Shown: positions 8,932 to 48,828 of the stretch, in pieces
Layout: each line of letters opens with the position of its first letter
Position numbering within the stretch: the stretch's first letter is position 1
From: an uncultured Bdellovibrionales bacterium
Lineage (GTDB): Bacteria > Patescibacteriota > Minisyncoccia > Moranbacterales > UBA2206
Reading direction: 5' to 3'
DNA length: 64,000 nt
Assembly (NCBI GenBank): GCA_964387895.1
Contig: CAYLWX010000002.1
Location: forward strand, 15,779 to 79,778
Translations under genes and position numbers: made by a program
Notes under the pieces: model-generated
Databases searched by the model: none
Told to the model about the DNA's origin: nothing
Seen by the model: the letters and a program-made list of their open reading frames with translations, nothing else

Positions 8932-8955
8932 TAAATTGCGCCGGCTCTATTTTTA
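8932..8955. terminator. bidirectional rho-independent terminator between convergent miaA and the amidohydrolase gene
   Basis: gagccggcgc-taaatt-gcgccggctc perfect 10-bp stem, flanked by A-run and T-run. Confidence 0.6.
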
Positions 8956-16505: not shown

Positions 16506-17006
16506 TTAACGAGTTAATTCTAAAAAAGTAAATTTATGCTCTCCGTTATCACGCGCCTCTTCACTTATTATATTTTTAAACTCTGAATAATCCGGAAAGT
16601 ATGTATCCGCTTCATATTCTCCTTCAACCACAGTAAGGTAAAGTTTATCCGCGAAACTCATCGCCTGCTGGTATACCTGCCCGCCGCCGATAACAAATAT
16701 TTCTTCTCTTTCTACTTCTCCTGCTTTTTCAAGCGCCTCTTCCATTGAATGGCATACAACACATCCTTCCAGTATTAAATCAGCTTTTCTCGTAAGCACA
16801 ATATTCACTCTCCTTGGTAACGGCCTGCCTATAGAGTAGAAAGTATTTTCTCCCATAATTACAGGGTGTCCCGCGGTGATAGATCTGAAATGCTGAAGGT
16901 CTTCCGGAATATTCCACAAAAGCCGGTTATCCTTGCCAATTGCCCGATCTCTGGCAATGGCGCAGATGATGCTAATGATTGGTTTTTTATTAACTTTTTC
17001 TGGCAT
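16506..17006 (-). CDS. folA: dihydrofolate reductase
   Basis: ISIICAIARDRAIGKDNRLLWNIPEDLQHFRSIT ... VIMGENTFYSIG. Classic DHFR. Confidence 0.85.
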   Translation of the reverse strand: MPEKVNKKPIISIICAIARDRAIGKDNRLLWNIPEDLQHFRSITAGHPVIMGENTFYSIGRPLPRRVNIVLTRKADLILEGCVVCHSMEEALEKAGEVEREEIFVIGGGQVYQQAMSFADKLYLTVVEGEYEADTYFPDYSEFKNIISEEARDNGEHKFTFLELTR

Positions 17007-34011: not shown

Positions 34012-34287
34012 TTATTCAGCTTCTATACTTTCTATTCTCCATACATCTCCCCCTGCTCTCTTTATTTCAAATCTCGCCCCTTCCAACACGGTATTCTTCG
34101 CCAGACTTTCTAATCCAAACTGTAAATTTTCCATGTTTATCTCTTCCGCGTGATCAGGCATCCCGTCATGCGAGAACGCGATGCTTCCTATCTCTAAACG
34201 CACCGCGGAAATTTTTTTTAATTTCTTCTCTTGCGCCACTTCCATAACTTTTCCAATTATTTCTTTGGCCAGAAAAAAATCATGCAT
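34012..34287 (-). CDS. HypA-like nickel-insertion protein, truncated (N-terminal MHD/MHE Ni-binding start but no C-terminal CxxC...CxxC zinc finger)
   Basis: Start set at MHDFFLAKEII (HypA begins MHE). 91 aa. No Cys pairs in the C-terminal part. Confidence 0.45.
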   Translation of the reverse strand: MHDFFLAKEIIGKVMEVAQEKKLKKISAVRLEIGSIAFSHDGMPDHAEEINMENLQFGLESLAKNTVLEGARFEIKRAGGDVWRIESIEAE

Positions 34288-34293
34288 ACTGTT

Positions 34294-34373
34294 TATGGAA
34301 CATAAAACATGGAACATGGAAAAAAATTTAAAATAATTTGTTCCATGTTATGTGTTCCATGTTTCATGTTTTT
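34294..34373. repeat. family-C dyad element (ACATGGA 7-mer inverted arrays around an A/T centre)
   Basis: ggaacataaaacatggaacatggaaaaaaatttaaaataatttgttccatgttatgtgttccatgtttcatg. Between the hydrogenase large-subunit stop and the HypA-like start. Confidence 0.65.
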
Positions 34374-35632
34374 TAGTGTACCGCGCAACTTATACACGGA
34401 TCATATGCTCTGATAAACGCTCTTAATTTCTTTTCTCTTTCTTTCTCAGGTAAGTCCACCACTTCAGGGATATAGGCTTTTATGTCATCCTCAAGATTGG
34501 ATAAAAATTGAGCGGTAGGAGTAATAATATTCACATTCTTTACGTATCCCTTCGCGTCTACCTCTGTATGATAATAGAGCGTGCCTCTGGGCGCTTCCAC
34601 CGCTGCCACACCAACCCCTTCCCGCGGGATATACTCTTTAGTTACCACTTGATTCAAATCGGCATTTAACAAAAGCCGCAACATTCTTCCTGATTCCTCC
34701 ACCGCGTGAATTACTTCTACCATTTGCGCCAGCACATTATGGAAAGGATTATAGTCCGGAAACTTCCACTGCAAAGAAGACAAATATTTTTCCGCCGCGG
34801 GAGAAAGCGCCATATGGTTTATATTCACTCTCGCGATTGCTCCTGTCATATAACTCTTTCCGTTGTGTTCCACTCTTTTTACTACCTCATGTTGTTTTTG
34901 CAGTTCGGAAAAATTGGATTCGAATTTGTCCACCGGTATATGCAACCCGTCGGAAGACACAATGTCCCCGTCATATACCGCGTACTCGTTTTTTTTCTGG
35001 AGACATACATATTCCGTATTCCGGGAAAAATACGGCAAGGTGATCTTCTTGAAAAATTCTCCCAGCTCCAACGCGTGCCGCAGTGTTTCTTCGCTATGCT
35101 CTATAATCTTTTTCACTGCCTCCGCGTCCGGCACTTTTTTGAATCCTCCTACCTCATTAGTGAGGGGATGCACGACTCGTCCTCCGATCACCCGCACGAT
35201 ATCCATGCCATATTCCCTGATCTTGATCGCTTTTTTGGCTTCTTCAGGATGTTCTTTGACCAATTGCAAATCGTTGCTGATATCCAGAAAATCAGCCAGC
35301 GATAAAAAGAAAAGATGCAGCCCGTGAGAGTGAATAATTTGTCCCAGCTCCAGAACCGCGCGAAGTTGCTCCGTCTCGCGGGTTACCATTACCCCCATTG
35401 CGTTTTCAAGGGATTTTATGGAAGTTAGATTGTGCACTACAGGACAAATCCCGCAAATCCGTTGCGCGATAACCGGCACATCTTTGTAGTGGCGTCCGAC
35501 TAAAATTCCTTCAATCAGGCGAATTCCCTCCTGCACTTCAATTTTTGCTTTGCGCACGTCACCTTTCAACACGCTGGCCATAAACCCCGCGTGCCCTTCC
35601 ATTTTTGCTACATGTTGTATGAGAATATCCAT
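34373..35632 (-). CDS. [NiFe]-hydrogenase large (catalytic) subunit, group-3-like, ending exactly at the DPCxxCxxH motif (no C-terminal extension)
   Basis: N-terminal RICGICPVVH (RxCGxCxxxH) and C-terminal DPCISCAVH-stop. Start set at MDILIQHVAKMEGHAGF (the ORF track extends to 35698, overlapping the small subunit). Confidence 0.8.
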   Translation of the reverse strand: MDILIQHVAKMEGHAGFMASVLKGDVRKAKIEVQEGIRLIEGILVGRHYKDVPVIAQRICGICPVVHNLTSIKSLENAMGVMVTRETEQLRAVLELGQIIHSHGLHLFFLSLADFLDISNDLQLVKEHPEEAKKAIKIREYGMDIVRVIGGRVVHPLTNEVGGFKKVPDAEAVKKIIEHSEETLRHALELGEFFKKITLPYFSRNTEYVCLQKKNEYAVYDGDIVSSDGLHIPVDKFESNFSELQKQHEVVKRVEHNGKSYMTGAIARVNINHMALSPAAEKYLSSLQWKFPDYNPFHNVLAQMVEVIHAVEESGRMLRLLLNADLNQVVTKEYIPREGVGVAAVEAPRGTLYYHTEVDAKGYVKNVNIITPTAQFLSNLEDDIKAYIPEVVDLPEKEREKKLRAFIRAYDPCISCAVH

Positions 35633-35636
35633 AATA

Positions 35637-36452
35637 TTATTCCTGGGTTCTTTCCTCAATAGCATCCCGTAATCCATAAATCTCCGTCGTATTTTCAAAC
35701 TCTTCGTCCGTCATCATATTTTTAAGCGTCGCGCGCATAGCTTTTACATTGCCTTTTGGACGAAGACCGCGGCAGCCCTGGCACATCATTTTGGAACTTG
35801 GACAGACTGCCTGGCAACCTCCCTGGATCATGGGACCAAAACAAGGTTTTTTATCCAGAAGAAGACAGCGATTGCCCAACTTTCTACATTCCACACACAC
35901 TGGCTGATCAGGAATTTCAGGAATCTTTCCTTCGATAATATCCGTCATATAGCGCAAAAATTCTTCACCGTCTATAGGACATCCCGGAAGCGTAAAGTCC
36001 ACTTTCACAAAATTATCCACTTCTTTAATTTCCGGATTAGAAACTCCCTGAATATATTTATAGACATGCTTGATCGTATTCTGCCCTTCCTGGTAATTTT
36101 TGATTTCCGGTATTCCTCCCATCGCCGCGCAATTTCCCAGTACTACCAGCAATTTACTTCGCTGTCTAAGTTGGAGAAGAGTTTTTATATTCTCTTCCGT
36201 CACCGGATTGCCTTCTATAATCCCCACATCGATATTTTCACCTTTATCTTCATCATCTTCCAGTAAACGAAAATCCACTAGTTCCACCTGCTGCAAAAAT
36301 TGTAAAAACCGCTCTCCTAAATCCAGAATGGCAAACTGGCATCCCTCACAGGAAGTAAGACTCACAATCGCAATTTTCGGTTTTGATCGATCTTTGGTTT
36401 TTATTTGTACCGCCAGATTCGAAATCTCCCGCGGATGAATAGATCCGGGCAT
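35637..36452 (-). CDS. [NiFe]-hydrogenase small/delta subunit with C-terminal poly-Cys Fe-S domain
   Basis: IAIVSLTSCEGCQ, GNCAAMGG, LPGCPIDG (complex I 20-kDa/NiFe small-subunit proximal-cluster motifs). C-terminal CVECRK...CFGPMIQGGCQAVCPSSKMMCQGCRG. Start set at 36452 (MPGSIHP). The track's N-terminus runs through the family-A repeat. Confidence 0.75.
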   Translation of the reverse strand: MPGSIHPREISNLAVQIKTKDRSKPKIAIVSLTSCEGCQFAILDLGERFLQFLQQVELVDFRLLEDDEDKGENIDVGIIEGNPVTEENIKTLLQLRQRSKLLVVLGNCAAMGGIPEIKNYQEGQNTIKHVYKYIQGVSNPEIKEVDNFVKVDFTLPGCPIDGEEFLRYMTDIIEGKIPEIPDQPVCVECRKLGNRCLLLDKKPCFGPMIQGGCQAVCPSSKMMCQGCRGLRPKGNVKAMRATLKNMMTDEEFENTTEIYGLRDAIEERTQE

Positions 36453-36495
36453 AATAGAGTTATCGATTATTGAAGCGAGGGTAGACACAATACTT

Positions 36496-36622
36496 AAATT
36501 TCCAATTCCCAAATCCCAATTTCCAATAAATGTCCAATGACCAAATTCCAAAAATTTTGCACATTGGGATTTGGGGTCCCGAGTACCCGGAATTGGAAAT
36601 TAGATATTGGGAATTGGAAATT
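36496..36622. repeat. family-A dyad element, copy with embedded GTCCCGAGTACCCGG palindrome
   Basis: aaatttccaattcccaaatcccaatttccaataaatgtccaatga ... ttgcacattgggatttggggtcccgagtacccggaattggaaattagatattgggaattggaaatt. Between hydG and the hydrogenase small subunit. Confidence 0.7.
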
Positions 36623-36687: not shown

Positions 36688-38082
36688 TTAGAAATACAAA
36701 TCTCTCTCTCCCTTCTCAATTCTCCCCAGTCTCTTTTCTGTCTCTTTTCTTACTTTCTTACTCGGTATTTCCCGCAGGTATTTTTTCATAATGTGTTCGC
36801 CTGATTCGCGCTCTTTGGGAGTGGCGTAATCTTCAAGATATTCTTTAAACGTGAGAATCGCGTTGGGGCGGCAGAAATTGTGAATGTTTCCAGGTTTGGC
36901 CAGATCCATAAAAGTCTCTCCGGTTCTTCCGGTTCGATAACAGGCGGTGCAAAAACTGGGAAGCAATTTTTGTTTTAAGATGCCCTGAATAAATTCCGCC
37001 ACGCTTCGATGATCGCTGGTATGAAACTGTTCTAATCTTTGTTCCTTTCCATATCCTCCCGGAGAAGTACGGGAGGCCGCGCTGGTTTGGGAAATGCCGA
37101 TCTTGAAAGCCCGCGAGCGAATTTGCGGCCGCTCGCGAGTGGAAATAATCATGCCGGTATAAGGTACGGCGAGGCGAAGTATCGCAATGATACGAAGCAA
37201 GTCCTGCTCGCTTACATGATACTTCGATTTGAAGGTTACCGTATCGGCCGGTTGCAATCGCGGTACGGAAATGGTATGCGGACCCACGCCGAATTTTTTC
37301 TCGAGATATTTCGCGTGGGAAAGCAGCCCTAATACTTCAAAACGATAATCGTATAATCCAAATAATACTCCCAATCCCACATCATCAATGTCAGCCCGAA
37401 AAGCGTTATCATGGGCAAAAAGCTGCCGCCGAAAATCAGCCTTGGGCCCATAGTGAAGCTTCTCGTAAGTTTCCAGGTGATACGTCTCCTGAAATAACTG
37501 ATACGTTCCGATGCCGGCCTTTTTGAGTTTGCGGTAATTTTCCACCGAAGTCGCGGCAATATTCACGTTCACTCTTCTGATAGCGCCGTTTTTTGATTTA
37601 GTTCCATAAATAGTTCTGATCACTTTCACTACATAATCAATAGTATTTTCTCCGGGATGCTCTCCAAATTCGAGCAGTAACCGCTTATGTCCCATATCCT
37701 CCAGTATTTTTACCTGTTCTTGTATCTCTTTTAAGGTAAGTTTTTTTCTCAGCGCCTTGTTACGCGCGTGAAACCCGCAATATTCGCAATCGTTCACGCA
37801 AAAACTGGAAATGTATAACGGGGCAAACAGCACCAGCCGTTCGCCGTATATTTCATCCTTGATCCTGCCCGCGACCTGGAATATTTCTTTCCAAAGCGCC
37901 TTGTCTTCGACCTGCAATAAATATCCGGCTTCCCTAAGATTCAGCCCCTTCTTTTTTTTAGCCTTTTCAAGCACAGAGCGCACCACTTCCTGTGAAGGGT
38001 TTTGCGTAGCACGTAATATAGCAACTATTTTTTTCTCGTTGATTATTGTTTTAATGTCAGACATAAAAAAATAATACCTCAT
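36688..38082 (-). CDS. hydG: [FeFe]-hydrogenase maturase HydG-like radical SAM tyrosine lyase
   Basis: Radical SAM CVNDCEYCGF (Cx3Cx2C) and a C-terminal CTAC-x22-C (Cx2Cx22C) auxiliary-cluster motif that distinguishes HydG from ThiH. ~460 aa. Confidence 0.7.
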   Translation of the reverse strand: MRYYFFMSDIKTIINEKKIVAILRATQNPSQEVVRSVLEKAKKKKGLNLREAGYLLQVEDKALWKEIFQVAGRIKDEIYGERLVLFAPLYISSFCVNDCEYCGFHARNKALRKKLTLKEIQEQVKILEDMGHKRLLLEFGEHPGENTIDYVVKVIRTIYGTKSKNGAIRRVNVNIAATSVENYRKLKKAGIGTYQLFQETYHLETYEKLHYGPKADFRRQLFAHDNAFRADIDDVGLGVLFGLYDYRFEVLGLLSHAKYLEKKFGVGPHTISVPRLQPADTVTFKSKYHVSEQDLLRIIAILRLAVPYTGMIISTRERPQIRSRAFKIGISQTSAASRTSPGGYGKEQRLEQFHTSDHRSVAEFIQGILKQKLLPSFCTACYRTGRTGETFMDLAKPGNIHNFCRPNAILTFKEYLEDYATPKERESGEHIMKKYLREIPSKKVRKETEKRLGRIEKGERDLYF

Positions 38083-38130
38083 ACTTTACGAAGGGGCGAG
38101 GGAGGACAAGGACATAACTAAAATATGGCA

Positions 38131-38160
38131 GGAGCGGGTTTGCAAACCCGCTCCTCTATT
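38131..38160. terminator. hairpin ggagcgggtttgcaaacccgctcc with flanking T-rich run, downstream of doxX and upstream of hydG
   Basis: Perfect 10-bp stem with a 4-nt loop. Confidence 0.4.
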
Positions 38161-38190: not shown

Positions 38191-38628
38191 CTATTTCGTC
38201 TCTTCTGTTTTATTAGAGTATTCGCATACCCCCAATACTCTTGCCAAAGAATATTTCCCCACTCCTAAAAGCGTGATGCTCAGCGCGGCAAGAAGCAATA
38301 CTAAATCATATTCATATCCTCCTACAAAACCCTTGCTAAACTTGACCAGGAAGATCGCTCCCACCATTACTGCCGCGATTCCTATTCCTGCCATCCGCAC
38401 GCACAATCCTAAAATCATAGCGGCCCCTCCTAATGTTTCAATTGCTATCACAAGATAGGCAAGAAAAGCAGGAACTCCCAAAACGCCAAAAAATCCTACC
38501 GTACTGTCGAGCGTGGTAAGTTTTTGGATTCCATGAACTAAAAACACCACTCCCACTCCTAACCGGATAAGCAATATGCCCACATTAGGACGGCGTATCC
38601 ATTGGCGCTTGTTTCCACACATACACAT
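38191..38628 (-). CDS. DoxX family membrane protein
   Basis: LIRLGVGVVFLVHGIQKL, four TM helices. Confidence 0.7.
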   Translation of the reverse strand: MCMCGNKRQWIRRPNVGILLIRLGVGVVFLVHGIQKLTTLDSTVGFFGVLGVPAFLAYLVIAIETLGGAAMILGLCVRMAGIGIAAVMVGAIFLVKFSKGFVGGYEYDLVLLLAALSITLLGVGKYSLARVLGVCEYSNKTEETK

Positions 38629-38702
38629 AGTTTTATTTTAAATATTAAGAATACACTTTTTCTATTGTAGCATTTTTTGCGTATCTGTAAAATTCGCTCA
38701 TC

Positions 38703-38779
38703 TGGTGCACGCATCCGGACTCGAACCAGAGACCTCTTCAGTGTGAATGAAGCGCTCTAACCAACTGAGCTATGCGTGC
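38703..38779 (-). tRNA. tRNA-Val (anticodon CAC), CCA encoded
   Basis: Reverse complement GCACGCATAGCTCAGTTGGTTAGAGCGCTTCATTCACACTGAAGAGGTCTCTGGTTCGAGTCCGGATGCGTGCACCA. Confidence 0.9.
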
Positions 38780-38784
38780 GGAAA

Positions 38785-39462
38785 TTATATATCAATAGTA
38801 AAAAGTATCCTATCCCCGCTTCCTTCGAACGCTTCCTTTTCCAGTGGATTTTTCAAAATTTCCCGAAGAACAAGATTATCCGGAGTATTTTGCAAAGCTC
38901 CTTCATCCATAAAAAACGCTTTTGCCAGGGCGGGAGCATTATTCACACTGGAGTAATATTTCAGCGTTCCAATACTTTGAAATCCCAGCGAATCATAAAA
39001 TCCTTCATGTTTAGGATTAATGGCAATACACAGTGTGTCAATATCGTGAAAATGCGCGTAGTAAAAAACCACACGAAACAGCGAAAGCAATACTAATGAC
39101 TGCGCTTTTATTTTATTTTTCCCTATACCCTCCATATGCTCCCTATTGATCGCCAGTTGGGAAATTTCCGCGATTTTTCTGTTTTTATTTCTTAGCGCGT
39201 TTACCTCTTCTTTATAAATAGCTTCCATGGGCATGCCACGCGCTCCGTCTGTTACAATAGAAATAGTCGCAAGTAAAGTTTCCCCTATCCCAGCCTGAAA
39301 TGTAACAGATACCGGGAGAAGATTACCATGGGATACTGGATTTTTTTTTGAGCGCTCCGCTTTATCAATATACCCTTCTTTCAGGTATTCTTTACGCACT
39401 AATTGGGAAGATTTTTCAAACTTGTCTTTGGAGACGATAAGAGAAAAGACAATTTCAGACAT
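38785..39462 (-). CDS. putative acyl-ACP-dependent N-acyltransferase (OlsB / N-acyl amino acid synthase-like GNAT-fold)
   Basis: 225 aa. Weak resemblance to the Acetyltransf_5/OlsB family. Last gene of a nine-gene operon that also encodes an ACP, a PPTase and a PlsC acyltransferase. Assignment is tentative. Confidence 0.35.
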   Translation of the reverse strand: MSEIVFSLIVSKDKFEKSSQLVRKEYLKEGYIDKAERSKKNPVSHGNLLPVSVTFQAGIGETLLATISIVTDGARGMPMEAIYKEEVNALRNKNRKIAEISQLAINREHMEGIGKNKIKAQSLVLLSLFRVVFYYAHFHDIDTLCIAINPKHEGFYDSLGFQSIGTLKYYSSVNNAPALAKAFFMDEGALQNTPDNLVLREILKNPLEKEAFEGSGDRILFTIDI

Positions 39463-39469
39463 ATCCTTT

Positions 39470-41050
39470 TTAATATTGAGGCATTAAAATTACTTCCCTT
39501 TCATGCACTCCGCTCAGTATCTCGGTGAAGTTATCATCAGAAATTCCTGTTTCTATTTCCGCTTTTATATTTTTTCCATTTCTTACCATGTTCACAAAGC
39601 TTTTTCCTCCCGCTTTTTCTATATAACGGCCAGGCACTCTTATCGCGGTATCTTTTCTTCCAAATTCAATCCTGGCATCCGCCGTCATCCCTTCCCTGGC
39701 GCCAAAAACGAATCCCTCCAAAGATATGTTAGCTCTATAATATACATCTCCATTTTTATTCATCGGCTGGGGATCGATGGAAGTCACTTTTCCGGTTACT
39801 TTTTCGTCAGGGAAAGCCTTCAACTTCACATTCACATTATTCCCTATACTCACGTTCACGATATCCTCTTCCGGAACATCCGCGTGCAACTTTTGGTTAA
39901 AGGCGGAAAAAATCACCGCCGTTTGTCCTCCGGGAAACGCGGGAATAACTTCAGACTCTTTGAATAAAGTTTTCATTACCATTCCGTCCATTGGCGCTTT
40001 CAGAGTTGATTTATCAAGTTTATTATTCAAAATATCTATATTACTATGTATAAAATCAACTTCACTTTGAGCCATTCGCACGTCCTCGCTTCTCACCTTC
40101 GCGTCCGCGAACACAAGATTTTTCTGGGCTACATCACGATCGCCCTTCGCCTCACCCAAATCTATTACTGACTCTCTCACCGCGACCTTCGCCGCGTCCA
40201 TATTAGTTCTGGCCAAAGAAACGGAAGATTTCCATGAATCTATAGTAGCCTGGGACACGCCGTTATCCGTAGTAAGCTGGTTCACCGCCTGGGCAATTTT
40301 GTCCAGATAAGACTGGATGCTATCCATCCGGCTGTACCCTTTATCTAATGCATCGTCCAAATCATCTGAATACTCCAGCGCGTCCACTGAATCTTCCCAG
40401 TCATCAAGCTTTTCTTCCAATGAGCTTCTTTTAGATTCGATGTCACTCTCAAGACTGGAATCTCCAATGGTAAAGTTTAACCGGGGATTAGCGCTATCAG
40501 GATTAGAAAACATCTGGTTGGTTTTTCCGCGAACCGAGTCTTCTCCCGCCGTGTAAGCGCTCCTGACTACATCTACCAGGGCCTTCTTCGCGTCCTTAAT
40601 GGAACTGTTATAGGCTTTTACTTTTTCCTTATAGACTTGGATGCTTTCTTCGGTAGCTCCTGCCAGTATTTTGTCCAGATTCGCCTGGGATTTAATTAAA
40701 GACGCGTTAAGTCCCTTCATTTCCAGATCCAGATCATTGGTCTCAAGTTTCATAAGCGGATCCCCCTTCTTCACCGTAGCGCCCGCGGGAGCAAAAATTT
40801 TCTCGACTTTTCCGGAAAAAGAATAGGCCAGATTAAGATTTTCTTCCGAAACAACCACCGCGTCATCTATATCCACGTATTTTACCACTATGCCCCTTTC
40901 CGCCTGTACTGATTCTCCTGACTGCCCTTTATTATTGCTTGATTTATTATCATCTTTTTCAGCGGCCAAAATGCTCGCGCCCAAGAATACAAGCATAACC
41001 GAATTAGCGATGAAAAATAATATGATTAATATTTTTTTTATTTTTACCAT
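39470..41050 (-). CDS. HlyD/MacA-family periplasmic adaptor (membrane fusion) protein
   Basis: N-terminal TM anchor, ~200-aa coiled-coil hairpin, biotinyl/lipoyl-like and beta-barrel segments. Confidence 0.7.
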   Translation of the reverse strand: MVKIKKILIILFFIANSVMLVFLGASILAAEKDDNKSSNNKGQSGESVQAERGIVVKYVDIDDAVVVSEENLNLAYSFSGKVEKIFAPAGATVKKGDPLMKLETNDLDLEMKGLNASLIKSQANLDKILAGATEESIQVYKEKVKAYNSSIKDAKKALVDVVRSAYTAGEDSVRGKTNQMFSNPDSANPRLNFTIGDSSLESDIESKRSSLEEKLDDWEDSVDALEYSDDLDDALDKGYSRMDSIQSYLDKIAQAVNQLTTDNGVSQATIDSWKSSVSLARTNMDAAKVAVRESVIDLGEAKGDRDVAQKNLVFADAKVRSEDVRMAQSEVDFIHSNIDILNNKLDKSTLKAPMDGMVMKTLFKESEVIPAFPGGQTAVIFSAFNQKLHADVPEEDIVNVSIGNNVNVKLKAFPDEKVTGKVTSIDPQPMNKNGDVYYRANISLEGFVFGAREGMTADARIEFGRKDTAIRVPGRYIEKAGGKSFVNMVRNGKNIKAEIETGISDDNFTEILSGVHEREVILMPQY

Positions 41051-41061
41051 AGCGTTAAAAT

Positions 41062-41790
41062 CTATACATGTTGGGCACGGGAGTAAAAACGATTTTTTTC
41101 ATTTCCAACAAGCTTTCCATCCCGGAGAGTGATAATCCTGTCAGCCGATTGGGCTTCTTCTCTTTCATGAGTCACCAATATCATGGTTCTATGAAACACC
41201 TTATTTGCTTTTTTCAAAAAATCAATAACCATCCGTCCATTTTCTAAATCAAGATGAGCAGTAGGTTCATCTACGAGGATAATGAGAGAATCTTTCGCCA
41301 ACGCCCTGCCAATAGCCACTCTCTGCTGTTCTCCCCCTGAAAGCTCCCGCGGAAAGAAAGAAGCTCTGTCCTTAAGACCCAGAAAATCAATAATGCGCTG
41401 CGCCCTGCTTTTAGCCTCACTGCCGCTTAATCGCTGCAACTTTAACTGAAAAATAATATTTTCAACCGCCGTGTAATTTTCTATCAGGTTAAAAAACTGA
41501 AAAATAAATCCTACGGATTGCAACCGAAATTTATTTTTTTCCTTTTCAGAAAGCTTTTGAGTATCATTGCCATTTATAATTATTTTTCCGCCGGTAGGAT
41601 CGTCCAGAAGGCCGAGAAGGTTAAGCAAGGTTGTCTTGCCCGATCCGGATGAACCGTTAATAGCCAGAAATTCACCCCGCGAGACTTCAAAACTTACTCC
41701 GTTAAGAGCCGGCACTGTAACATATTTGCTCACTTTATATTCTTTATAAAGGTCCTGGACGCTTATTAACGTATCCGCAGTTTCATCCAT
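41062..41790 (-). CDS. ABC transporter ATP-binding protein, MacB/LolD/FtsE-type
   Basis: GSSGSGKTT Walker A, LSGGEQQRVAIGRAL signature, ILVDEPT Walker B. Confidence 0.85.
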   Translation of the reverse strand: MDETADTLISVQDLYKEYKVSKYVTVPALNGVSFEVSRGEFLAINGSSGSGKTTLLNLLGLLDDPTGGKIIINGNDTQKLSEKEKNKFRLQSVGFIFQFFNLIENYTAVENIIFQLKLQRLSGSEAKSRAQRIIDFLGLKDRASFFPRELSGGEQQRVAIGRALAKDSLIILVDEPTAHLDLENGRMVIDFLKKANKVFHRTMILVTHEREEAQSADRIITLRDGKLVGNEKNRFYSRAQHV

Positions 41791-42981
41791 TTAGATAGCA
41801 TTACGAATTACGTCTGCGATTCTTGTTTTAGCGGCAATGTAGGAAGGAATAATGCTTCCCGCAAGTGAAGCTCCCACTAGAATAAAAAATAATTTTATTG
41901 CTTCTCTTTCCACAAAGACAGTGTGAAAATCTCCAATCAAAAGATTTATAGGATGGTTAGTCGAGTAAATATTCAGCAGCATAAACAACAGAAAACCGAT
42001 AAAATAGGACAAGCTGGCATACACAAAGGTCTCGAAAATATAAATTGCGACCACAAATCTGTTGCTCGCTCCCATTGACTTAAGAATTCCAATCTGTCTT
42101 CGGCGCTGAAATACGTTAATAAATATTATCACACTCATTATAACAAACGTAGTTTCAATTAACAAATTAGTAATACTTCCCGTGATAAACACTACCGCCG
42201 CGATAATGTCCTTAATGTATCCTGCTTCGTCTTCCCACGTAAACACCGCTATCCCCTGCAATTGATTCTGAATTAACCTGCGGACATCCTCCATCCTGGA
42301 GGAGTCTTTCAGTCTCACGACTATCTCACTATCCTTTCCTCGTCCATCTATGCGTTCTGTTTCTTTTTTAGGCAAGACAGCCCACCAGTTGGAAAGAAAG
42401 TTTTTAGCGTCAAAAATTCCTACCACCGTATAGTTTTCCCATTCCCCTTCAACCGATCTGATTTTTACTTGTTCTCCTACGCGAATCATCTTTCCATCAT
42501 ACGCCAATCCTTCCAACGCGTCGGCAAACGTAATTCCCAGAGCAACGCTTTTAGTGTCATGCGGGTCAATAAACCTGCCGTGAATAATTCGCTCGGAAAC
42601 CTTCGAAGTTCTAATCTCGTTGAATACATCGACTCCCAGAATCGCATAGGGACGACTTATCCGGTTATCGTATTCGAAATCTGCCTGCCCATGGTTTCTT
42701 ATGCTGTAAGATTCCACTTCTTTTATCCGGGAAAGGTACTCCGCTACTTCGGATACATTTTCTATCTTCTTCTTTTTTTTCTCCGGCTTTACACGCAGAT
42801 GAGCATTAGTATCAACTTCCCCGTTTATTAAAGTTGCCTTAAACCCTTCCAGCACGCCAGAAGAAATAAACACCGCGGTAAACGCCGAACTTAGGCTTAT
42901 AATCGTAAGCACTAACACGGTCCTGCTTTTGGAAACATCTCTTAAGGCAAACGATATGAGGATGAGTATTCTGTTTAGCAT
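41791..42981 (-). CDS. ABC transporter permease, FtsX/MacB-type with large extracytoplasmic domain
   Basis: TM1, a ~220-aa periplasmic domain, three C-terminal TM helices. Abuts the ATPase gene. Confidence 0.75.
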   Translation of the reverse strand: MLNRILILISFALRDVSKSRTVLVLTIISLSSAFTAVFISSGVLEGFKATLINGEVDTNAHLRVKPEKKKKKIENVSEVAEYLSRIKEVESYSIRNHGQADFEYDNRISRPYAILGVDVFNEIRTSKVSERIIHGRFIDPHDTKSVALGITFADALEGLAYDGKMIRVGEQVKIRSVEGEWENYTVVGIFDAKNFLSNWWAVLPKKETERIDGRGKDSEIVVRLKDSSRMEDVRRLIQNQLQGIAVFTWEDEAGYIKDIIAAVVFITGSITNLLIETTFVIMSVIIFINVFQRRRQIGILKSMGASNRFVVAIYIFETFVYASLSYFIGFLLFMLLNIYSTNHPINLLIGDFHTVFVEREAIKLFFILVGASLAGSIIPSYIAAKTRIADVIRNAI

Positions 42982-42998
42982 GGGATATATTGTATGAA

Positions 42999-43892
42999 TC
43001 AGGTTCTACGCGACTTCAATAAAAATTTTTTCGCGTACCAGATTTTTAGTCTTTGCGTGATATTTTTATTACCGCCATAAATATACTTTTTTTTGTATTT
43101 TTTCACAAAGGGATCAAACTGAGACACAAAGGGAACCGTGTCTACTTTTTTACCAAGAATAATTTTAACAATCTCAGAACCAACCAGGACGGCGCACATT
43201 AGTGGTCCAATTCCAAGCGAAGGCGCTTTTTGGTCGTGAAAATCAATCGATTGCGGACGGAAATAAGAAGAGTGAATAAGAAAAGGACTTACCCCGAGAG
43301 AAAACCGTACCATCATTTCAGAATAATCCATGGCATCATCTATATTAAAATACTCTTCAAATGTCATACCTGATGGATCAAACACCAAAAGGGAAGCACC
43401 AAATCCTATCGGTCCGGAAGTTATCACAGGGATCCCTTTTCTTCTGGCTTCTCGAAAAAGCATCAAGCGATCCTTTATACAGAAAAAATCCAACCCGTCT
43501 ACTGCCACATTTGCCCCTTCTAAAAATATATCTACATTGTCTTTATGTATTCCATCCTCAAAAGCAGTTATATGTAAGAACGGATTTATGGCTTTAGCCA
43601 TTTTTCTCATTACCTCGCATTTTTTTTCTCCTAACGTGTTCGTATTGGCGCCCGCCTGGCGATTAATGTTAGCAACTTCGAAGGAATCAAAATCAGCAAT
43701 TGAAAAGTTTCCAATGCCGACCCTGGAAAGACTTAAGAGATAATTCCCGCCTACTCCGCCCATTCCCGCGATAGCAACTTTGGCCATCTTTAACTTATTC
43801 TGTTCTGAGAGTGATAAAACGCCAATATTTCTAGCATAAGCTTCCTGGTAAAAATCACTTTTCTTTTTCTCAAAATGTGTGTCATTAACCAT
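42999..43892 (-). CDS. ThiF/MoeB/HesA-family E1-like adenylyltransferase
   Basis: IAGMGGVGGNYLLSLSRVGIGNFSIADFDSFEVANINRQ is the E1 Rossmann nucleotide-binding motif. Confidence 0.7.
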   Translation of the reverse strand: MVNDTHFEKKKSDFYQEAYARNIGVLSLSEQNKLKMAKVAIAGMGGVGGNYLLSLSRVGIGNFSIADFDSFEVANINRQAGANTNTLGEKKCEVMRKMAKAINPFLHITAFEDGIHKDNVDIFLEGANVAVDGLDFFCIKDRLMLFREARRKGIPVITSGPIGFGASLLVFDPSGMTFEEYFNIDDAMDYSEMMVRFSLGVSPFLIHSSYFRPQSIDFHDQKAPSLGIGPLMCAVLVGSEIVKIILGKKVDTVPFVSQFDPFVKKYKKKYIYGGNKNITQRLKIWYAKKFLLKSRRT

Positions 43893-43906
43893 GTGGTAAG
43901 AGGCCG

Positions 43907-44668
43907 TTATTTTTTGTTAATAAAATTCAATGCCTCATTAAGGATATCCGGATTCACGTTTATAAAAGAATGCCCGCACGTAAGTTCTTTGAAATTTCCC
44001 TTCCGGGAAATTTGGTATTTCAGGGGAACGAGAATGTCTTTCCTGCAGGAAATATACAAATGCTTTTCGACTGAATTTTTATCCTGTATATATTCTAATA
44101 CTCCATTCCACGGTTCTGGATTAAAGGAAAAATTCTTATTATACTTATACGCTAATTCTGTGCTGGGAATAGGGATTGCGGGAGATATGATGGTAACCAG
44201 CTTGTCTACTTTTTCAGATCCATGCAACTTTTCTACGTAGTATCTTGCCGTGACTCCCCCCAGACAAATACCGATAATATTTAATTTTTTAGTCTTAGTT
44301 TCTTTAAGCACCTCGTCCACGTATTGACTAAGTTTCTTCGCTGACATATCCGGAGAGTCTTTATAATCATATTCAAATGAAACTACGCGCAATCCATTCT
44401 CCTTGAACCAGAGTGCCGTTCCGTATACATCCTTGTAGTACTCAGCCCCCGCTCCATGCACAAGAATAGTTAGCGAAGTTTGATTTTTTTTCGCATTCTC
44501 TATGCTTTCCTCATTGAATGTGTCCATTTTTTCCCTGGTTCCCGAGAGAGAAATCAGACTATAATACAGCTTGCTGCTGAAATTATTAAAATAATTAGAT
44601 GAGTTCAACCACGCAATAACCAAAAGCACTGTCAATACTACTACGATGATACCCGCTATTTTAAACAT
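43907..44668 (-). CDS. alpha/beta-hydrolase (lipase/esterase-like) with N-terminal TM anchor; nucleophile elbow is G-I-C-L-G (Cys in place of Ser)
   Basis: LVHGAGAEYY oxyanion region and IIGICLGG elbow. Confidence 0.55.
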   Translation of the reverse strand: MFKIAGIIVVVLTVLLVIAWLNSSNYFNNFSSKLYYSLISLSGTREKMDTFNEESIENAKKNQTSLTILVHGAGAEYYKDVYGTALWFKENGLRVVSFEYDYKDSPDMSAKKLSQYVDEVLKETKTKKLNIIGICLGGVTARYYVEKLHGSEKVDKLVTIISPAIPIPSTELAYKYNKNFSFNPEPWNGVLEYIQDKNSVEKHLYISCRKDILVPLKYQISRKGNFKELTCGHSFINVNPDILNEALNFINKK

Positions 44669-44694
44669 TGGATTATGATAATAATTTTTAGAAT

Positions 44695-44940
44695 TTACGT
44701 ATGCAACACTTCGGTGGCATATTTTACAATGTCCCCGACCGTTTCTATTCTTATCAATTCATCGTACTGAAGTCTTCGATTAAATTTTTTCTCAAATGCC
44801 ATAATAAGAGAAAATACCTGTATAGAGTCTTTGCATAAGTCCTCAATTTTTGAATCCATGGTTATCTCTGCTCGGTTTATTTTTAATTGTTCGCGGAGTA
44901 TATCATACACCGCATTGGTTATTTTTTCCTGACTTTCCAT
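44695..44940 (-). CDS. acyl carrier protein-like
   Basis: 81 aa. LCKDSIQVFSLIMAFEKKF fits the ACP helix-II DSL phosphopantetheine-attachment motif. Confidence 0.6.
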   Translation of the reverse strand: MESQEKITNAVYDILREQLKINRAEITMDSKIEDLCKDSIQVFSLIMAFEKKFNRRLQYDELIRIETVGDIVKYATEVLHT

Positions 44941-44944
44941 ACTG

Positions 44945-45661
44945 TTATGTTATAAAAACCTGGGAAACTACATAGTTATTATTGAATATCAACCATTGTA
45001 TTTTTGACGCCATGTAAGTACCTTCTTGTTTTAAAGCAAATTTTCCCTTGTTATCCTTACTTATAACTAACGATCCCGGGTGAATGAGGAGCCCCTGTCC
45101 ACAAGCCTTAAGATATGATTCCTTGATGCTCCAAAAAAGAGTAGCCATAATATTTTTTTCATCTTTCGAATTATCAGACAAGTACCCCAATTCTTCATTC
45201 GTAAGAAAATCTTCCAATAATTTTTGGGTAAACGTCTGTATCTTCTCAATATCCACGCCCACGTATCCGCTTCTTTCTTTCCACGACACCGACGCGATTC
45301 CTATTCCGTCTGTATGAGCTATACTAAGATCAATTTTCCTGTTTATAGAATTAATCCTTTTACTAAGTCTTCTTCTTGTGCGGTATGAAGGTTTTCGAAA
45401 TTTTCCACTCTCAATTTCAATCTCATGAAGAGGGATGAAGACAAAACAACTGTTGTAAAAAAAATTACTGAGTGCGATCTTGGCTGCAACTCTTCCCGCT
45501 ATCCAATCATCTCTTTTCACCCGGTGCTTCCCCTGGTATTCTTCCCACTCTCTATCAGTAAGATACTCTCTTAGCGGCAGGCTTTGTAGCATTTTTTGGT
45601 CTGCAATCGCGATCATCTTAATTAGAATAACTGTTTTCCAAAGCCAGATTATCAATGGCAT
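44945..45661 (-). CDS. 4'-phosphopantetheinyl transferase (Sfp-type)
   Basis: GVDIEKIQ and FWSIKESYLKACGQG match the PPTase (V/I)G(I/V)D and (F/W)(S/C/T)xKE(S/A)xxK motifs. Confidence 0.7.
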   Translation of the reverse strand: MPLIIWLWKTVILIKMIAIADQKMLQSLPLREYLTDREWEEYQGKHRVKRDDWIAGRVAAKIALSNFFYNSCFVFIPLHEIEIESGKFRKPSYRTRRRLSKRINSINRKIDLSIAHTDGIGIASVSWKERSGYVGVDIEKIQTFTQKLLEDFLTNEELGYLSDNSKDEKNIMATLFWSIKESYLKACGQGLLIHPGSLVISKDNKGKFALKQEGTYMASKIQWLIFNNNYVVSQVFIT

Positions 45662-46265
45662 TTTTTACAACATCGATATTTTTAAATTCTTCACTATATT
45701 CATATACCGGACTGAAAATCAACTGGCGCTGAGGATTCCAGACAGCCAGCCAATTACTTCTTTGAAATCCGACCATTTTAACAAACACGATATTCTCTGC
45801 CACGTCAACAAAAAAGGTTACCCCCAGATGAAAATCAGACAAATCGTTACTAGCGCATATTTTCCCTTCCGGAAACAGCATAATAGTTTTTCTGTCTATT
45901 AAATATTGGCGAGTCCGAAAAAGATTAGCCATTTTATCCTTTTTAGTATTTCCAATATCATAACAGCCTAGAATCGAAAAAAATCTTAACTTAGTATAAT
46001 ATTCATGTGAAGTGGGGAATCGCACAGGCAGTACTTTTATGAAGGTGCAAAAAGGAAGACGAGCAAGAATTAAAAATGGGTCCAACACTGATTGATGATT
46101 GGAGATAATCAGAGATCCTTTTTTCAATTGTCCGATATTATCAGAAATGCTGTTAACTGATCTGAAAAAATAACGCAGGAAACGAGAAAACACAACATAC
46201 GCCATGATCTGAGTAAGGGTTATAGCGTAGTCAACTGCTTTTCGCGAAAATATGTTGCTTTGCAT
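45618..46265 (-). CDS. PlsC-family lysophospholipid acyltransferase-like protein
   Basis: IISNHQSVLDPF (HxxxxD acyltransferase motif) and FPEG motif. Start set at MQSNIF. The track ORF extends to 46337. Confidence 0.65.
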   Translation of the reverse strand: MQSNIFSRKAVDYAITLTQIMAYVVFSRFLRYFFRSVNSISDNIGQLKKGSLIISNHQSVLDPFLILARLPFCTFIKVLPVRFPTSHEYYTKLRFFSILGCYDIGNTKKDKMANLFRTRQYLIDRKTIMLFPEGKICASNDLSDFHLGVTFFVDVAENIVFVKMVGFQRSNWLAVWNPQRQLIFSPVYEYSEEFKNIDVVKNAIDNLALENSYSN

Positions 46266-46477
46266 GATTTTTAGATAACCCCCATGAGATACATAATCGA
46301 AAATCAACCAGCAACCAGCTTTTTGCTCATTTCTCAACTCGCCTAATAGTAAATAATGGTGTTTGAAGCAATCATACCAAACTCGTAATGATAATGCAAA
46401 ATGCCGGAGTCAATTTTCTGGATTGCTCGCGCGCGGTATCGGTGCTATAATCCCAAAAAGCTGCAGCATCCTTATTT

Positions 46478-47536
46478 ATGGAAACCATTAGAGATTATAT
46501 CGTAGAAATACTCCAGGACGGACATCTGGCCCCTTCAGCGGATAATGCCCAGCCGTGGTTTTTTAATATTGAAGGCGACTCTATAGTGGTTACCCATGAC
46601 GTTGAAGCCACTCACGCCAACCATCTCTACAATCTTGATTATTTCGCGGATTACATAAGCTTAGGATGTGTAGTGGAAAATATTTTTATTAGCGCAAAAC
46701 GATACGGATATACCGCCGGCATTGTATCAACCGATCATAGCAACGGCCGATTTTCTATTCGAATTAAACTAGATAAAACACACGCTCCGTCAACTCTCCC
46801 TTTGTATGAAGCTATCAAAGAAAGAAAGACTGATCGCAACGCCTATCTCCAGAAGAAAATTCCCGGGCGTATTAGCAGGGAGTTATGTGCTATCACCTCA
46901 ACGCGGGGAGCTACTCTTCATTGGATAGAAAACGATTCCTTGCTTTCCTCGTTCGCTGACACAATAGCTCTGCATGACGCCATTTTATGGGAAGACGAAG
47001 CGGTAAGAATAAATCTTCTCCGAATGATCCGATTGGATAATAAGAAGTGCGAAGATGGATTGCCTATAAAAAGCCTCGGCTTGGGAATAAAGAGACATCT
47101 TTTTTATCCTTCCATAAAAATAGCCGGACATCTCCCTCTTTTTTGGAAAGTGCTGAAGTACAGCTCAATAGACCACACCAGAAAAAATACAAAAAAATCC
47201 GCCGCCCTGGGTATTCTTACTATGCCTAAAGAACATAGCCCACTTACCTACCTGGAAGGCGGAAGAATAATGCAATCTCTCTGGATTAATCTGACAATGA
47301 ATAAAATATCCTTCCAGCCTCTTTTCGGATCAGTAGCGTTAATACTGAACAGTAAACTTGGCACGGAAGGATTGTCAGAAAAACACAAGAAAATAAGAGA
47401 TACTATTTCAAATTTTTTCTATAGCCAAATTCCAGAACTTCAAACCGCTACTCCCATCGCGATTTTCCGCGTGGGATATGCCAGCAAACCTGCAGTAAGA
47501 TCGGGGAGAAAAAAATTAGACGCGGTAGTGCGGTAA
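46478..47536 (+). CDS. two-domain nitroreductase-family protein
   Basis: PSADNAQPWFF N-terminal nitroreductase motif. ~350 aa, consistent with tandem nitroreductase folds (SagB/Acg-like architecture). Confidence 0.5.
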   Translation: METIRDYIVEILQDGHLAPSADNAQPWFFNIEGDSIVVTHDVEATHANHLYNLDYFADYISLGCVVENIFISAKRYGYTAGIVSTDHSNGRFSIRIKLDKTHAPSTLPLYEAIKERKTDRNAYLQKKIPGRISRELCAITSTRGATLHWIENDSLLSSFADTIALHDAILWEDEAVRINLLRMIRLDNKKCEDGLPIKSLGLGIKRHLFYPSIKIAGHLPLFWKVLKYSSIDHTRKNTKKSAALGILTMPKEHSPLTYLEGGRIMQSLWINLTMNKISFQPLFGSVALILNSKLGTEGLSEKHKKIRDTISNFFYSQIPELQTATPIAIFRVGYASKPAVRSGRKKLDAVVR

Positions 47537-47559: not shown

Positions 47560-48828
47560 TCATCTTTCAATTTCCTCCCTCATTCTCTCCTCCAGCATCT
47601 GATAACTTTCTTCGGCTTTAAATAAGCCGTATTTTTCCCAAATATTTCCTTCTTCGTGAAATTTATTAGCATATATTTTATACAGCGGACGATATTTCGG
47701 CGGGGTGAGATTAAACATCAAAGAATTCGCGCCGGCCGTAAGCGCTTGTTTTCTAATGTCTTTTCCTGCTAATGTTTCCAACGCCGTTACCACCGGAATG
47801 CGGCCGGTTTTCATCATGAGACGCAACACCGCGATCATATTGAGAATTAATTGTACGTCTCCGACCGGCTGACCTTCCATAGGAGTATTATTCCCCGGCA
47901 CAAACGGACCAAAGCTGGCCATATGGGCCAGTTTTTTAATCAGCAGTACATCATCGGCAATATCTTCGATCGTCTGTCCGGGAAATCCTACAATGGATCC
48001 GGTCGCAATAAAGTAGCCGATACTTTTTAAATATCCCAAAGTTTCCAACCGGTTTTTCAAATTTTTTCCATGCGTATGAAATTTTTTGAAAAGTTCCAGG
48101 TTGGAAGTTTCAAAACGAAACAGTACTCCCGACGCGCCCGCTTCTTTCATTTTTTTGTACGCCTCTTTGCTTCGCTCTCCGACACTCATAAAAATAAACG
48201 CTTTGGCGCGATTTTTGATGCCTGTGATAATTTGAAGCAACATCTCGTCAGTATAAAACAAGTCTTCCCCCGACTGGAGCACGAAAAGCTTATATCCTTT
48301 TTCATCTACTGCCTGTACGGCCGTCTCTATAATTTCCGCAACACTCATACGGTAACGTTCTATGGCAGCATTTTGCGCCCGCAGTCCGCAATAAGCACAA
48401 TCATTTTTGCAATAATTGGAAAACTCTATAATGCCGTGAATACAAATAAAATCTTTAAGATAGGTTTTACGCAAAACATCCGCCTCGGCAAAAAGCGCTT
48501 CTCTTTCATCCCCTTCCGCCCTGAGAAGATATATAATTTCTTCTTTGGTTAAATCTCTTTCTTTTGACGCGGTGATTATATCTTTAAATTCTTGCGATAG
48601 CTTTTCCTTGTCCGCCAAAGGATGAAAATTCTCCAACAAACTGATAATTTCCTTCGCGTCAATTTCTGAAATTTTCCGGACCGCGGTATTGGAAGTATAC
48701 AGCAACCAGTCCCCGACTTTAAGATCGGGAATATAAGAAGCCAGAACTTTTCGACTTGAATTCGAGTCGTTAATAATGGCAAAATTGCCTTCCAGTTTAG
48801 TTACTTTGGCGGGGATGGTGAGACACAT
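47560..48828 (-). CDS. hydE: HypC-domain / HydE radical-SAM fusion protein
   Basis: N-terminal MCLTIPAKVTKLEGNFAIIN...VGDWLLY aligns to HypC/HybG (MC(I/L)xxP...GN.A.V...VGxWVL). The rest matches HydE: IIEFSNYCKNDCAYCGLRAQNAAIERYRM, FVLQSGED, GSIVGFPGQTIEDIADD. Confidence 0.7.
   Translation of the reverse strand: MCLTIPAKVTKLEGNFAIINDSNSSRKVLASYIPDLKVGDWLLYTSNTAVRKISEIDAKEIISLLENFHPLADKEKLSQEFKDIITASKERDLTKEEIIYLLRAEGDEREALFAEADVLRKTYLKDFICIHGIIEFSNYCKNDCAYCGLRAQNAAIERYRMSVAEIIETAVQAVDEKGYKLFVLQSGEDLFYTDEMLLQIITGIKNRAKAFIFMSVGERSKEAYKKMKEAGASGVLFRFETSNLELFKKFHTHGKNLKNRLETLGYLKSIGYFIATGSIVGFPGQTIEDIADDVLLIKKLAHMASFGPFVPGNNTPMEGQPVGDVQLILNMIAVLRLMMKTGRIPVVTALETLAGKDIRKQALTAGANSLMFNLTPPKYRPLYKIYANKFHEEGNIWEKYGLFKAEESYQMLEERMREEIER

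Follow-up and report, generated by a model that had tools for sequence, protein, structure and literature searches.

Genes at the locus

The window analyzed here is a stretch of 64,000 nucleotides (64 kb) from an uncultured bacterium deposited under the name Bdellovibrionales and placed by GTDB in the Patescibacteriota (Moranbacterales, UBA2206; assembly GCA_964387895.1, contig CAYLWX010000002.1, positions 15,779 to 79,778). Its minus strand carries, in this order, a gene in which the [NiFe] hydrogenase chaperone HypC is fused to the radical S-adenosylmethionine (SAM) maturase HydE, the tyrosine lyase gene hydG, the genes for the small and large subunits of a [NiFe] hydrogenase, and a truncated hypA-like gene (Table 1). 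The conserved operon placement of the fusion together with HydG, as seen across the genomes described below, suggests a hybrid route, so far undescribed, for assembly of the [NiFe] active site.

The fusion gene is an uninterrupted open reading frame (ORF) encoding 422 amino acids with the N-terminus MCLTIPAK. A preliminary description of this sequence had read it as a single ORF joining HypC to HydE and had named PF01455, PF04055 and TIGR03956 as the profiles to check it against; all three match, PF01455 and TIGR03956 above their cut-offs, and the coordinates, domain boundaries and motifs given there all proved correct. The HypC domain is full-length, scoring 53.2 bits against Pfam PF01455 (HupF_HypC; gathering score 28.5, E 3.2e-14), and the fusion scores 44 bits against NCBIfam TIGR00074 (hypC_hupF), slightly under the cut-off of 48. 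The NCBIfam HydE equivalog TIGR03956 matches residues 88-393 at 276.5 bits (cut-off 254.6), and Pfam PF04055 (Radical_SAM) covers residues 134-295. HmdB, PylB and BioB were each rejected as the identity of the radical-SAM domain, since their NCBIfam models gave 66, 162 and 96 bits, respectively, against the 276.5 bits for HydE. The HydE domain is devoid of the C-terminal auxiliary-cluster cysteines.

Structural comparison gave a similar picture. A sequence search of the PDB with the fusion returned Thermotoga maritima HydE (TmHydE) with an E value of 3e-66 over residues 81-390 and Thermococcus kodakarensis HypC with an E value of 8.5e-8 over residues 1-63. An AlphaFold2 model built with 34 homologues as input had a predicted local distance difference test score (pLDDT) of 89.7 and a predicted template modelling (TM) score of 0.89, and the best Foldseek matches to this model were TmHydE entries, with TM-scores normalised to the target of 0.84-0.88 at 36-38% identity. 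The bounds of the linker between the two domains are set by the start of the HydE profile at residue 88 and of the TmHydE alignment at residue 81, and the N-terminal block with the lowest pLDDT (75) comprises residues 61-70.

In agreement with the preliminary description, the fusion lies about 9 kb from a [NiFe] hydrogenase with HydG adjoining, the distance between hydG and the fusion being 9.5 kb. The 9.4-kb insertion that separates them was found in this genome only, the order and orientation of the genes being otherwise as elsewhere, and it is a lineage-specific interruption. The true start of the small subunit is probably internal to its ORF, that of the large subunit probably near Met23, and that of the hypA-like gene likely Met11 (MHD...). 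The last of these genes, missing from the preliminary description, encodes only the Ni-binding N-terminal domain and no cysteines, and therefore has no zinc site.

Neither hypB, hypD, hypE or hypF nor hydA was found in the 64 kb, using Escherichia coli HypA, HypB, HypD, HypE, HypF and HycI as probes (tblastn E<1) together with scans for motifs of HypD, HypB, HypE, HypF and the H-cluster of HydA; when almost all of the larger ORFs were compared with Pfam, nothing further on hydrogenase maturation was revealed and no hydF, which was not probed directly. The earlier statement that all of these genes are absent from the window was thereby upheld. Genes for the beta and gamma diaphorase subunits were likewise not detected in the window (tblastn E<1e-3), so that the complete heterotetramer of a group-3b enzyme is not encoded there; these subunits may be encoded elsewhere in the genome.

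Table 1. Coordinates of the fusion gene, its domains and motifs, and the associated genes in the window
Feature	Coordinates	Strand	Evidence
hypC-hydE fusion gene	47560..48828	-	PF01455 and PF04055; TIGR03956 above cut-off
HypC domain, residues 1-65	48634..48828	-	PF01455 positions 1-65 of 65
Linker, approximately residues 66-87, from HypC domain to first HydE helix	48568..48633	-	
HydE radical-SAM domain, residues 88-393	47650..48567	-	TIGR03956
CX3CX2C radical-SAM cluster motif, C140/C144/C147, CKNDCAYC	48388..48411	-	Translation
Cys129-x-His131 family-specific motif (CIH)	48436..48444	-	Translation
9.4-kb block between fusion and hydG	38191..47536	not single	Pfam, NCBIfam, tRNA
hydG (464 amino acids), radical-SAM tyrosine lyase	36688..38082	-	TIGR03955
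[NiFe] small subunit	35637..36551	-	PF01058; best NCBIfam matches are sulfhydrogenase delta subunits
[NiFe] large subunit, group-3b-like	34373..35698	-	PF00374; best NCBIfam matches ShyA/HydA
Truncated hypA-like gene	34012..34317	-	PF01155 positions 1-69 of 112, 36.7 bits against 28.9

Conservation of the fusion

The preliminary description had allowed that the junction between the two domains might be an assembly chimera of two ORFs. An assembly chimera or a frameshift at the junction can be ruled out, because the same architecture is kept in more than 150 sequences. Both PF01455 and PF04055 are present in 117 of the 120 best clusters at 90% identity, which have 54-90% identity and derive from many independent assemblies, and an alignment of 34 sequences is colinear over the HypC/HydE junction, with Met1, Cys2, Leu3 and Pro6 invariant. 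The scan of other genomes that had been proposed, carried out with one genome per species, recovered 58 fusion loci, which were examined at ±10 kb. All 58 align to the query from residue 1 (residue 45 in one truncated locus) to approximately residue 420. Most are labelled as Patescibacteria, or candidate phyla radiation (CPR; Moran-, Falkow-, Jorgensen-, Berkel-, Buchanan-, Peregrini- and Peribacteria), and seven are labelled Thermodesulfobacteriota or Deltaproteobacteria. Among the best 150 representatives of 50%-identity clusters the HypC domain was found in 22, including a divergent clade whose members start with MCYAIPG. In the databases, the fusion proteins bear the name '[FeFe] hydrogenase H-cluster radical SAM maturase HydE'.

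Operon context of the fusion

To define the genomic context, the 58 loci were probed with HydG and the [NiFe] subunits of the window, and neighbouring ORFs were clustered into families. The consensus order is beta (Fer4_22), gamma (FAD/NAD/2Fe-2S), hypC-hydE, hydG, small subunit, large subunit and truncated hypA, so that in a group-3b-type operon the maturase genes stand after those for the diaphorase and before those for the catalytic subunits. Of the 53 loci that have at least 1.5 kb of downstream sequence, 33 have hydG immediately downstream of the fusion on the same strand, at less than 400 bp; most of these gaps measure 2-47 bp, and the five widest 95-246 bp. In 34/58 loci the fusion is no more than 6.6 kb from a [NiFe] large subunit gene, and 47/58 have hydG, the large subunit or both. 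The beta and gamma genes stand beside the fusion in 23 related loci, and the truncated HypA, a family of 84 amino acids, follows the large subunit in 12 loci (the window and 11 others).

Two independent, unrelated lineages encode HypC-HydE-HydG triple fusions, both inside group-3b [NiFe] operons. The first, P0242 (881 amino acids; L067 10001-12646), was recovered from two samples and sits in a CPR-type operon with the order beta, gamma, ..., fusion, small subunit, ..., large subunit, ..., 84-residue HypA. The second, P0246 (906 amino acids; L068 10001-12721), was recovered on five contigs and is positioned after beta-gamma-small-large-HycI in a genome that is not CPR, given that it encodes MtrB/PioB and multihaem cytochromes. 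Another fusion of the MCYAIPG clade is found after NicO ... beta-gamma-small-large-HycI.

No HypB, HypD, HypE or HypF was detected in the 58 loci of ±10 kb, which together comprise approximately 0.9 Mb (tblastn E<1 and motif scans), and hypA-like and hycI-like genes do occur there. HydA H-cluster motifs were absent from all 58 loci and from the window, and nothing resembling hydF was present among the annotated recurrent neighbour families of the loci, HydF not having been probed directly.

The Buchananbacteria-type operons (L037, L039, L048, L050, L051, L053, L054 and L060) also encode a membrane-anchored protein of approximately 176 amino acids with weak methyltransferase-like Pfam matches. 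This gene is often present twice, flanking the fusion and the large subunit (e.g., L037 8574-9104).

The HydE, HypC and HydG components

To compare the fused HydE domain with its canonical counterpart, an alignment was made of 156 distinct fused sequences and 120 canonical HydE, the latter drawn from Thermotogae, Thermoanaerobacter, Carboxydothermus, Sporomusa, Caloramator and other sources and all lacking PF01455 (T. maritima numbering is used for HydE residues except where noted). Both groups keep C63/C67/C70, V105, L157, R159, M224, T269, M291 and K309. The radical-SAM cysteine motif is invariant in the 156 fused and the 120 canonical sequences, and CX3CX2C, M224, M291, R159 and K309, the radical-relay residue of HydE (K or R), are conserved in 154-156 of the 156 fused sequences.

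The two groups differ at a defined set of positions. Arg54, Thr134 and Arg155 are each present in 120/120 canonical HydE, and in the fused family they are replaced by His (156/156), by Phe, Tyr or Leu, and by Gly (156/156), respectively. Further replacements, from canonical to fused, are T103L, A132F, G226S, N264R and A267V. Position 52, where the canonical residues listed are His, Tyr, Phe and Gln, is Cys in 156/156 fused sequences, resulting in an invariant Cys129-x-His131 motif (window numbering) on the first barrel strand, the canonical counterpart of which is (H/Y/F)52-x-Arg54. Quantum mechanics/molecular mechanics work on HydE has indicated that R54, T134, R155 and T269 make contact with the CN ligands of the Fe(I) species, and that M224 and M291 bind the Fe(I) intermediates, which dimerise in a hydrophobic cavity between the two, beside the CN-contacting residues (PMC11826987). 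The canonical cavity residues R54/T134/R155 are not those of the fused family.

This signature tracks with the HypC domain. C52, H54, F/Y/I134 and G/A155 were found in all 22 HypC-bearing representatives of the 50%-identity clusters and in five unfused ones, and 89 unfused representatives have R/T/R at positions 54/134/155. One unfused HydE with the signature of the fused family is encoded directly upstream of a hydG, and P0268, an 803-residue HydE-HydG fusion without HypC, has the canonical signature. Mean identity between fused and canonical HydE domains is 43%, compared to approximately 62% within each group. By these sequence measures, the fused HydE is a distinct subfamily.

In the HypC domain, which is always N-terminal, Met1, Cys2 and Pro6 are present in 156/156 fused sequences. 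The N-terminal position is needed for Cys2 to become the free N-terminal residue. C2 of HypC is essential, and H51 may coordinate Fe together with Cys41 of HypD (PMC12134894, a 2025 review). In the column of E. coli His51, the four commonest residues of the fused family are Ile, Thr, Ala and Val (139/156), none of them His, and the window has Thr45; His51 is kept in five standalone HypC neighbours. The loss of His51 would fit a HypC that no longer works on the HypD scaffold.

The HydG of the window scores 583.8 bits against TIGR03955 (cut-off 312) and 553 bits to Thermoanaerobacter italicus HydG (PDB 4wcx). All 38 true hydG neighbours encode the CX3CX2C motif and the C-terminal CX2CX22C motif, and His265 (in GVGPH), which we take to be the ligand of the dangler iron, is present in 37/37 HydG, including that of the window. 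Comparison with 119 canonical HydG identified 137 shared conserved columns and five diagnostic ones, with the substitutions Y104F, A136L, H220Q, H259Y and K296L (window numbering), two of which replace conserved histidines. Mean identity between the [NiFe]-linked and canonical groups is 52%, as against 43% for the HydE domain. From its sequence, HydG thus appears essentially canonical, and chemical divergence, if any, would be concentrated in HydE.

The [NiFe] hydrogenase

The large subunits encoded near the fusions have RxCGxCxxxH in 34/34 cases and DPCxxCxxH in 33/34, the 34th ending with its contig. In 27 of the 34, including the window, the C-terminus is the His of DPCxxCxxH; the large subunit of the window has RICGICPVVH and DPCISCAVH with no tail after the final His. 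As there is no C-terminal extension, a maturation endopeptidase is presumably not required. In a sister clade the large subunit extends into a short FLKxxW tail, and a HycI-like gene that matches only weakly in Pfam (E 0.018) lies nearby. The best PDB matches of the window large subunit are the alpha subunit of Pyrococcus furiosus sulfhydrogenase I and T. kodakarensis HyhL; in NCBIfam it matches ShyA/HydA best, although far under the equivalog cut-offs for these families. With four Cys ligands and a sequence nearest to characterized group-3b enzymes, the window large subunit is of the group-3b type as judged from its sequence, and the predicted neighbouring hydrogenase is a genuine [NiFe] enzyme that makes minimal demands on maturation.

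Proposed maturation route and alternatives

Taken together, these data suggest that the fusion, with HydG, is dedicated to the maturation of a cytoplasmic [NiFe] hydrogenase of the group-3b type, a reading to which we assign a probability of roughly 70%. The preliminary description had envisaged a chimeric route, in which the ligand chemistry of the [FeFe] maturases is channelled through a HypC-like carrier into a [NiFe] enzyme, and the embedding in operons, the triple fusions and the active-site changes all lend support to a route of this kind. In its fullest form, the entire Fe-CO/CN half of the [NiFe] cofactor would be produced from tyrosine by HydG, the remodelled HydE and the tethered HypC, without HypD, HypE and HypF, in Patescibacteria and some other anaerobes; this more far-reaching version is tentative, and we regard its chances as slightly below even.

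From tyrosine, HydG generates both CO and CN-, which it assembles into Fe(Cys)(CO)2(CN), and the HydG encoded beside the fusion would, judging from its sequence, form such an Fe-CO/CN synthon. Canonical HydE adenosylates this species and then removes the cysteine, leaving Fe(I)(CO)2(CN)S units on M224/M291 that dimerise (PMC11826987). The HydE domain of the fusion, in which the residues involved are conserved, could take up the synthon in the same way, with the 5'-deoxyadenosyl radical stripping the cysteine ligand to give a mononuclear Fe(I)-CO/CN unit on the conserved methionines. Since the cavity for dimerisation of two units (R54/T134/R155) has been remodelled to H/F/G and a Cys-x-His motif added, the iron unit would be expected to stay mononuclear, possibly held by Cys129/His131, and might then be handed to the thiolate/amine of Cys2 in the tethered HypC domain. 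HypC carries Fe(CN)2CO on Cys2 for insertion into the large subunit (PMC12134894), and the HypC domain could, in keeping with this known role, dock on the apo large subunit and insert the iron unit. The minimal HypA-like protein would then aid nickel insertion, with no endopeptidase needed. In such a scheme, HydG and HydE would replace some or all of the ligand building by HypD, HypE and HypF, and the HypC domain would occupy the carrier role that HydF has for [FeFe] enzymes.

Several observations weigh against this proposal. The product of HydG is Fe(CO)2(CN)(Cys) whereas the [NiFe] site contains Fe(CN)2(CO), and either an extra ligand-exchange step or non-standard ligands must be assumed; two tyrosines could supply enough CN- and a CO-to-CN exchange is conceivable, or the resulting [NiFe] site might have non-standard ligands such as Fe(CO)2(CN). 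Nine of the 34 hydrogenase loci are without hydG within 10 kb, and in 11/58 loci both hydG and a hydrogenase are missing from the vicinity. One of the 11 is a contig of 2.6 kb, and eight belong to a single clade (L040-L043, L046, L047, L049 and L052) with neither gene within 10 kb, in which the fusion is followed by DJ-1/PfpI, a 369-residue protein and a response regulator. Moreover, in the Thermodesulfobacteriota loci L020, L022, L026, L027 and L059, a standalone HypC that keeps His51 is encoded immediately upstream of the fusion, and the canonical Hyp machinery may therefore coexist there.

The presence of this separate, canonical HypC would also accord with a more restricted role, in which, when oxygen is absent, HydG and HypC-HydE provide no more than the CO ligand or an iron that is already carbonylated, and the cyanides come from HypE, HypF and HypD encoded elsewhere. 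How the CO for [NiFe] sites arises anaerobically is acknowledged to be an open question (PMC12134894), and the absence of hyp genes within ±10 kb is not decisive, because these genes are often unlinked to the structural genes. We nevertheless consider such a division of labour rather unlikely. The approximately 0.9 Mb around the 58 loci contains no hypD, hypE or hypF, while hypA-like and hycI-like genes do occur in it, and a symbiont of the Legionellales has been reported with only HybD, HypA and HypB in addition to the fusion. Furthermore, HydG yields CN- and CO equally, so that cyanide would be available, and the fused HypC has lost His51, to which a part in coordinating Fe on the HypCD scaffold is ascribed.

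Two other explanations would place the chemistry elsewhere altogether. The HypC domain could serve only to target the radical-SAM domain to the large subunit for some other modification, e.g., of the protein or an Fe-S cluster by sulfur or thiol chemistry, a view compatible with the relationship of HydE to BioB and PylB, with the remodelled cavity and with the nine hydrogenase loci that have no hydG nearby. The retention of all of the synthon-processing residues (M224, M291, K309, R159 and T269), along with the position of hydG immediately downstream in 33 loci and its in-frame fusion in two lineages, makes this improbable. Finally, HydE and HydG could act on an [FeFe] hydrogenase whose genes lie elsewhere, in which case the HypC domain and the [NiFe] neighbours would reflect nothing beyond co-regulated hydrogen metabolism. 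[FeFe] hydrogenases have been reported in some CPR lineages, both the HydE and the HydG equivalog models were passed, and the database names of the fusion proteins refer to the [FeFe] H-cluster. Such a coincidence is, however, very hard to reconcile with maturase genes inserted between the subunit genes of [NiFe] operons, with triple fusions inside such operons, or with a covalent partner that is a chaperone specific to [NiFe] enzymes, in which the essential Cys has to be at the N-terminus. The R54H, T134F, R155G and Cys129 changes were seen in none of the 120 canonical HydE, and neither H-cluster motifs (58 loci and window) nor an annotated HydF-like recurrent neighbour, in the searches described above, accompany the fusion. 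We therefore regard this last explanation as highly improbable, and favour a role for the fusion and HydG in maturation of the neighbouring [NiFe] enzyme.

Other features of the window

The 9.4-kb block between the fusion and hydG encodes DoxX, tRNA-Val, a FeeM-like N-acyl amino acid synthase, an HlyD/ABC/FtsX exporter, ThiF, an alpha/beta hydrolase, a phosphopantetheinyl transferase, an acyltransferase and an Acg-type nitroreductase, and looks like a cluster for the synthesis and export of a small molecule (possibly an N-acyl amino acid). A search for signs of a mobile island at tRNA-Val found no att-like direct repeats flanking the block. Between DoxX and hydG there is a perfect GC-rich hairpin with an 11-bp stem and T-runs on both sides (38130-38155), adjoined by a promoter-like site at 38185-38158 (minus strand). 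In a scan for promoters and terminators, the counts were not above those for shuffled sequence, and only this hairpin stood out. hydG, the two subunit genes and the truncated hypA may be transcribed apart from the fusion.

The remainder of the window is composed of housekeeping genes, including those for DnaE, ThrRS, MiaB/MiaA, GatB, thymidylate metabolism, Mur ligases, glycolysis and a ribosomal protein operon. In an ORF of 538 amino acids (16990-18606, minus strand), dCMP deaminase (residues 14-132) and thymidylate synthase (residues 203-522) are joined in one protein, an uncommon bifunctional arrangement; the ORF adjoins genes for dihydrofolate reductase and a dCTP deaminase-like protein. 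Four minus-strand ORFs of 164-375 amino acids (8953-10080, 10902-11831, 12208-12702 and 15176-15937) have no Pfam match at E<1e-5.

Comparison with known systems

The preliminary description had known of no earlier account of the fusion. With respect to function this appears to be correct, as full-text literature searches found no functional description or interpretation of a HypC-HydE fusion, but the protein itself has been encountered before. It is included in a report on the reduced genome of a Legionellales symbiont, where HybD, HypA and HypB plus the fusion are described as the 'full maturation machinery' and HypD, HypE, HypF and HydG go unmentioned. Additionally, Jaffe et al. 2020 (PMC7304191) defined two group-3b clades in CPR bacteria, hyd1 with beta and gamma subunits and a small subunit of approximately 250 amino acids, and hyd2 with a truncated small subunit, which share a neighbouring family, 'fam002', with hypC homology. 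These are the same hydrogenases as those described here, and our two locus types match both clades; in that study the neighbour was not recognized as a radical-SAM fusion of HypC and HydE with HydG, and no role in maturation was proposed for it.

Synthesis of the [NiFe] cofactor has been described as requiring six Hyp proteins, A-F, in every [NiFe] hydrogenase, in a 2025 review that names neither HydG nor HydE (PMC12134894), and a 2024 paper on archaeal hydrogenases discusses HydEFG for [FeFe] enzymes only. The findings presented here challenge the stated universality of HypA-F in a way that is directly testable. In its fullest form, the proposed route would, if correct, constitute a second, independent biosynthetic path to the [NiFe] active site and link the [FeFe] and [NiFe] maturation systems directly in evolution. 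A route based on HydG and HydE would imply that the modules of the two systems are exchangeable. It would also answer, concretely and testably for at least one lineage, where the CO ligand comes from under anaerobic conditions, and would define a minimal gene set for heterologous production of a [NiFe] hydrogenase, consisting of hypC-hydE, hydG and truncated hypA with no protease. Cys129-x-His131 and R54H/T134F/R155G are immediate targets for mutagenesis. The current annotation of the fusion as an [FeFe] H-cluster maturase would wrongly imply [FeFe] metabolism in CPR genomes.

The system is assembled from known modules. The HydE domain resembles HydE of the HydE/HydF/HydG system (T. maritima, PDB 3IIZ/7O1O) in its fold, its CX3CX2C motif, M224/M291, K309, R159 and T269, and its canonical HydG partner. 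Unlike T. maritima HydE, it is fused to HypC, has the H/F/G cavity and the Cys-x-His motif, and is embedded in [NiFe] operons, with no hydA seen nearby. Similarly, the HypC domain shares with the HypC/HybG/HupF chaperones a complete PF01455 domain, Met1-Cys2, Pro6 and a gene location beside [NiFe] large subunits, but rather than a free protein of approximately 80-90 amino acids it is the N-terminal domain of a 422-residue enzyme, has lost His51, and has no hypD partner in any of the 58 loci (±10 kb) or in the window.

Both halves of this architecture have precedents. The HypC paralogues HupF/HoxL provide one for a C-terminal extension of HypC, and HydEF of Chlamydomonas, in which HydE is fused to HydF, provides one for joining HydE to the carrier of its product. 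The extension of HupF, a protein covered in the 2025 review (PMC12134894), differs from the HydE domain described here in being short and non-enzymatic. HydEF, for its part, combines two components of the [FeFe] pathway, whereas the fusion joins a carrier of the [NiFe] pathway to an enzyme of the [FeFe] pathway.

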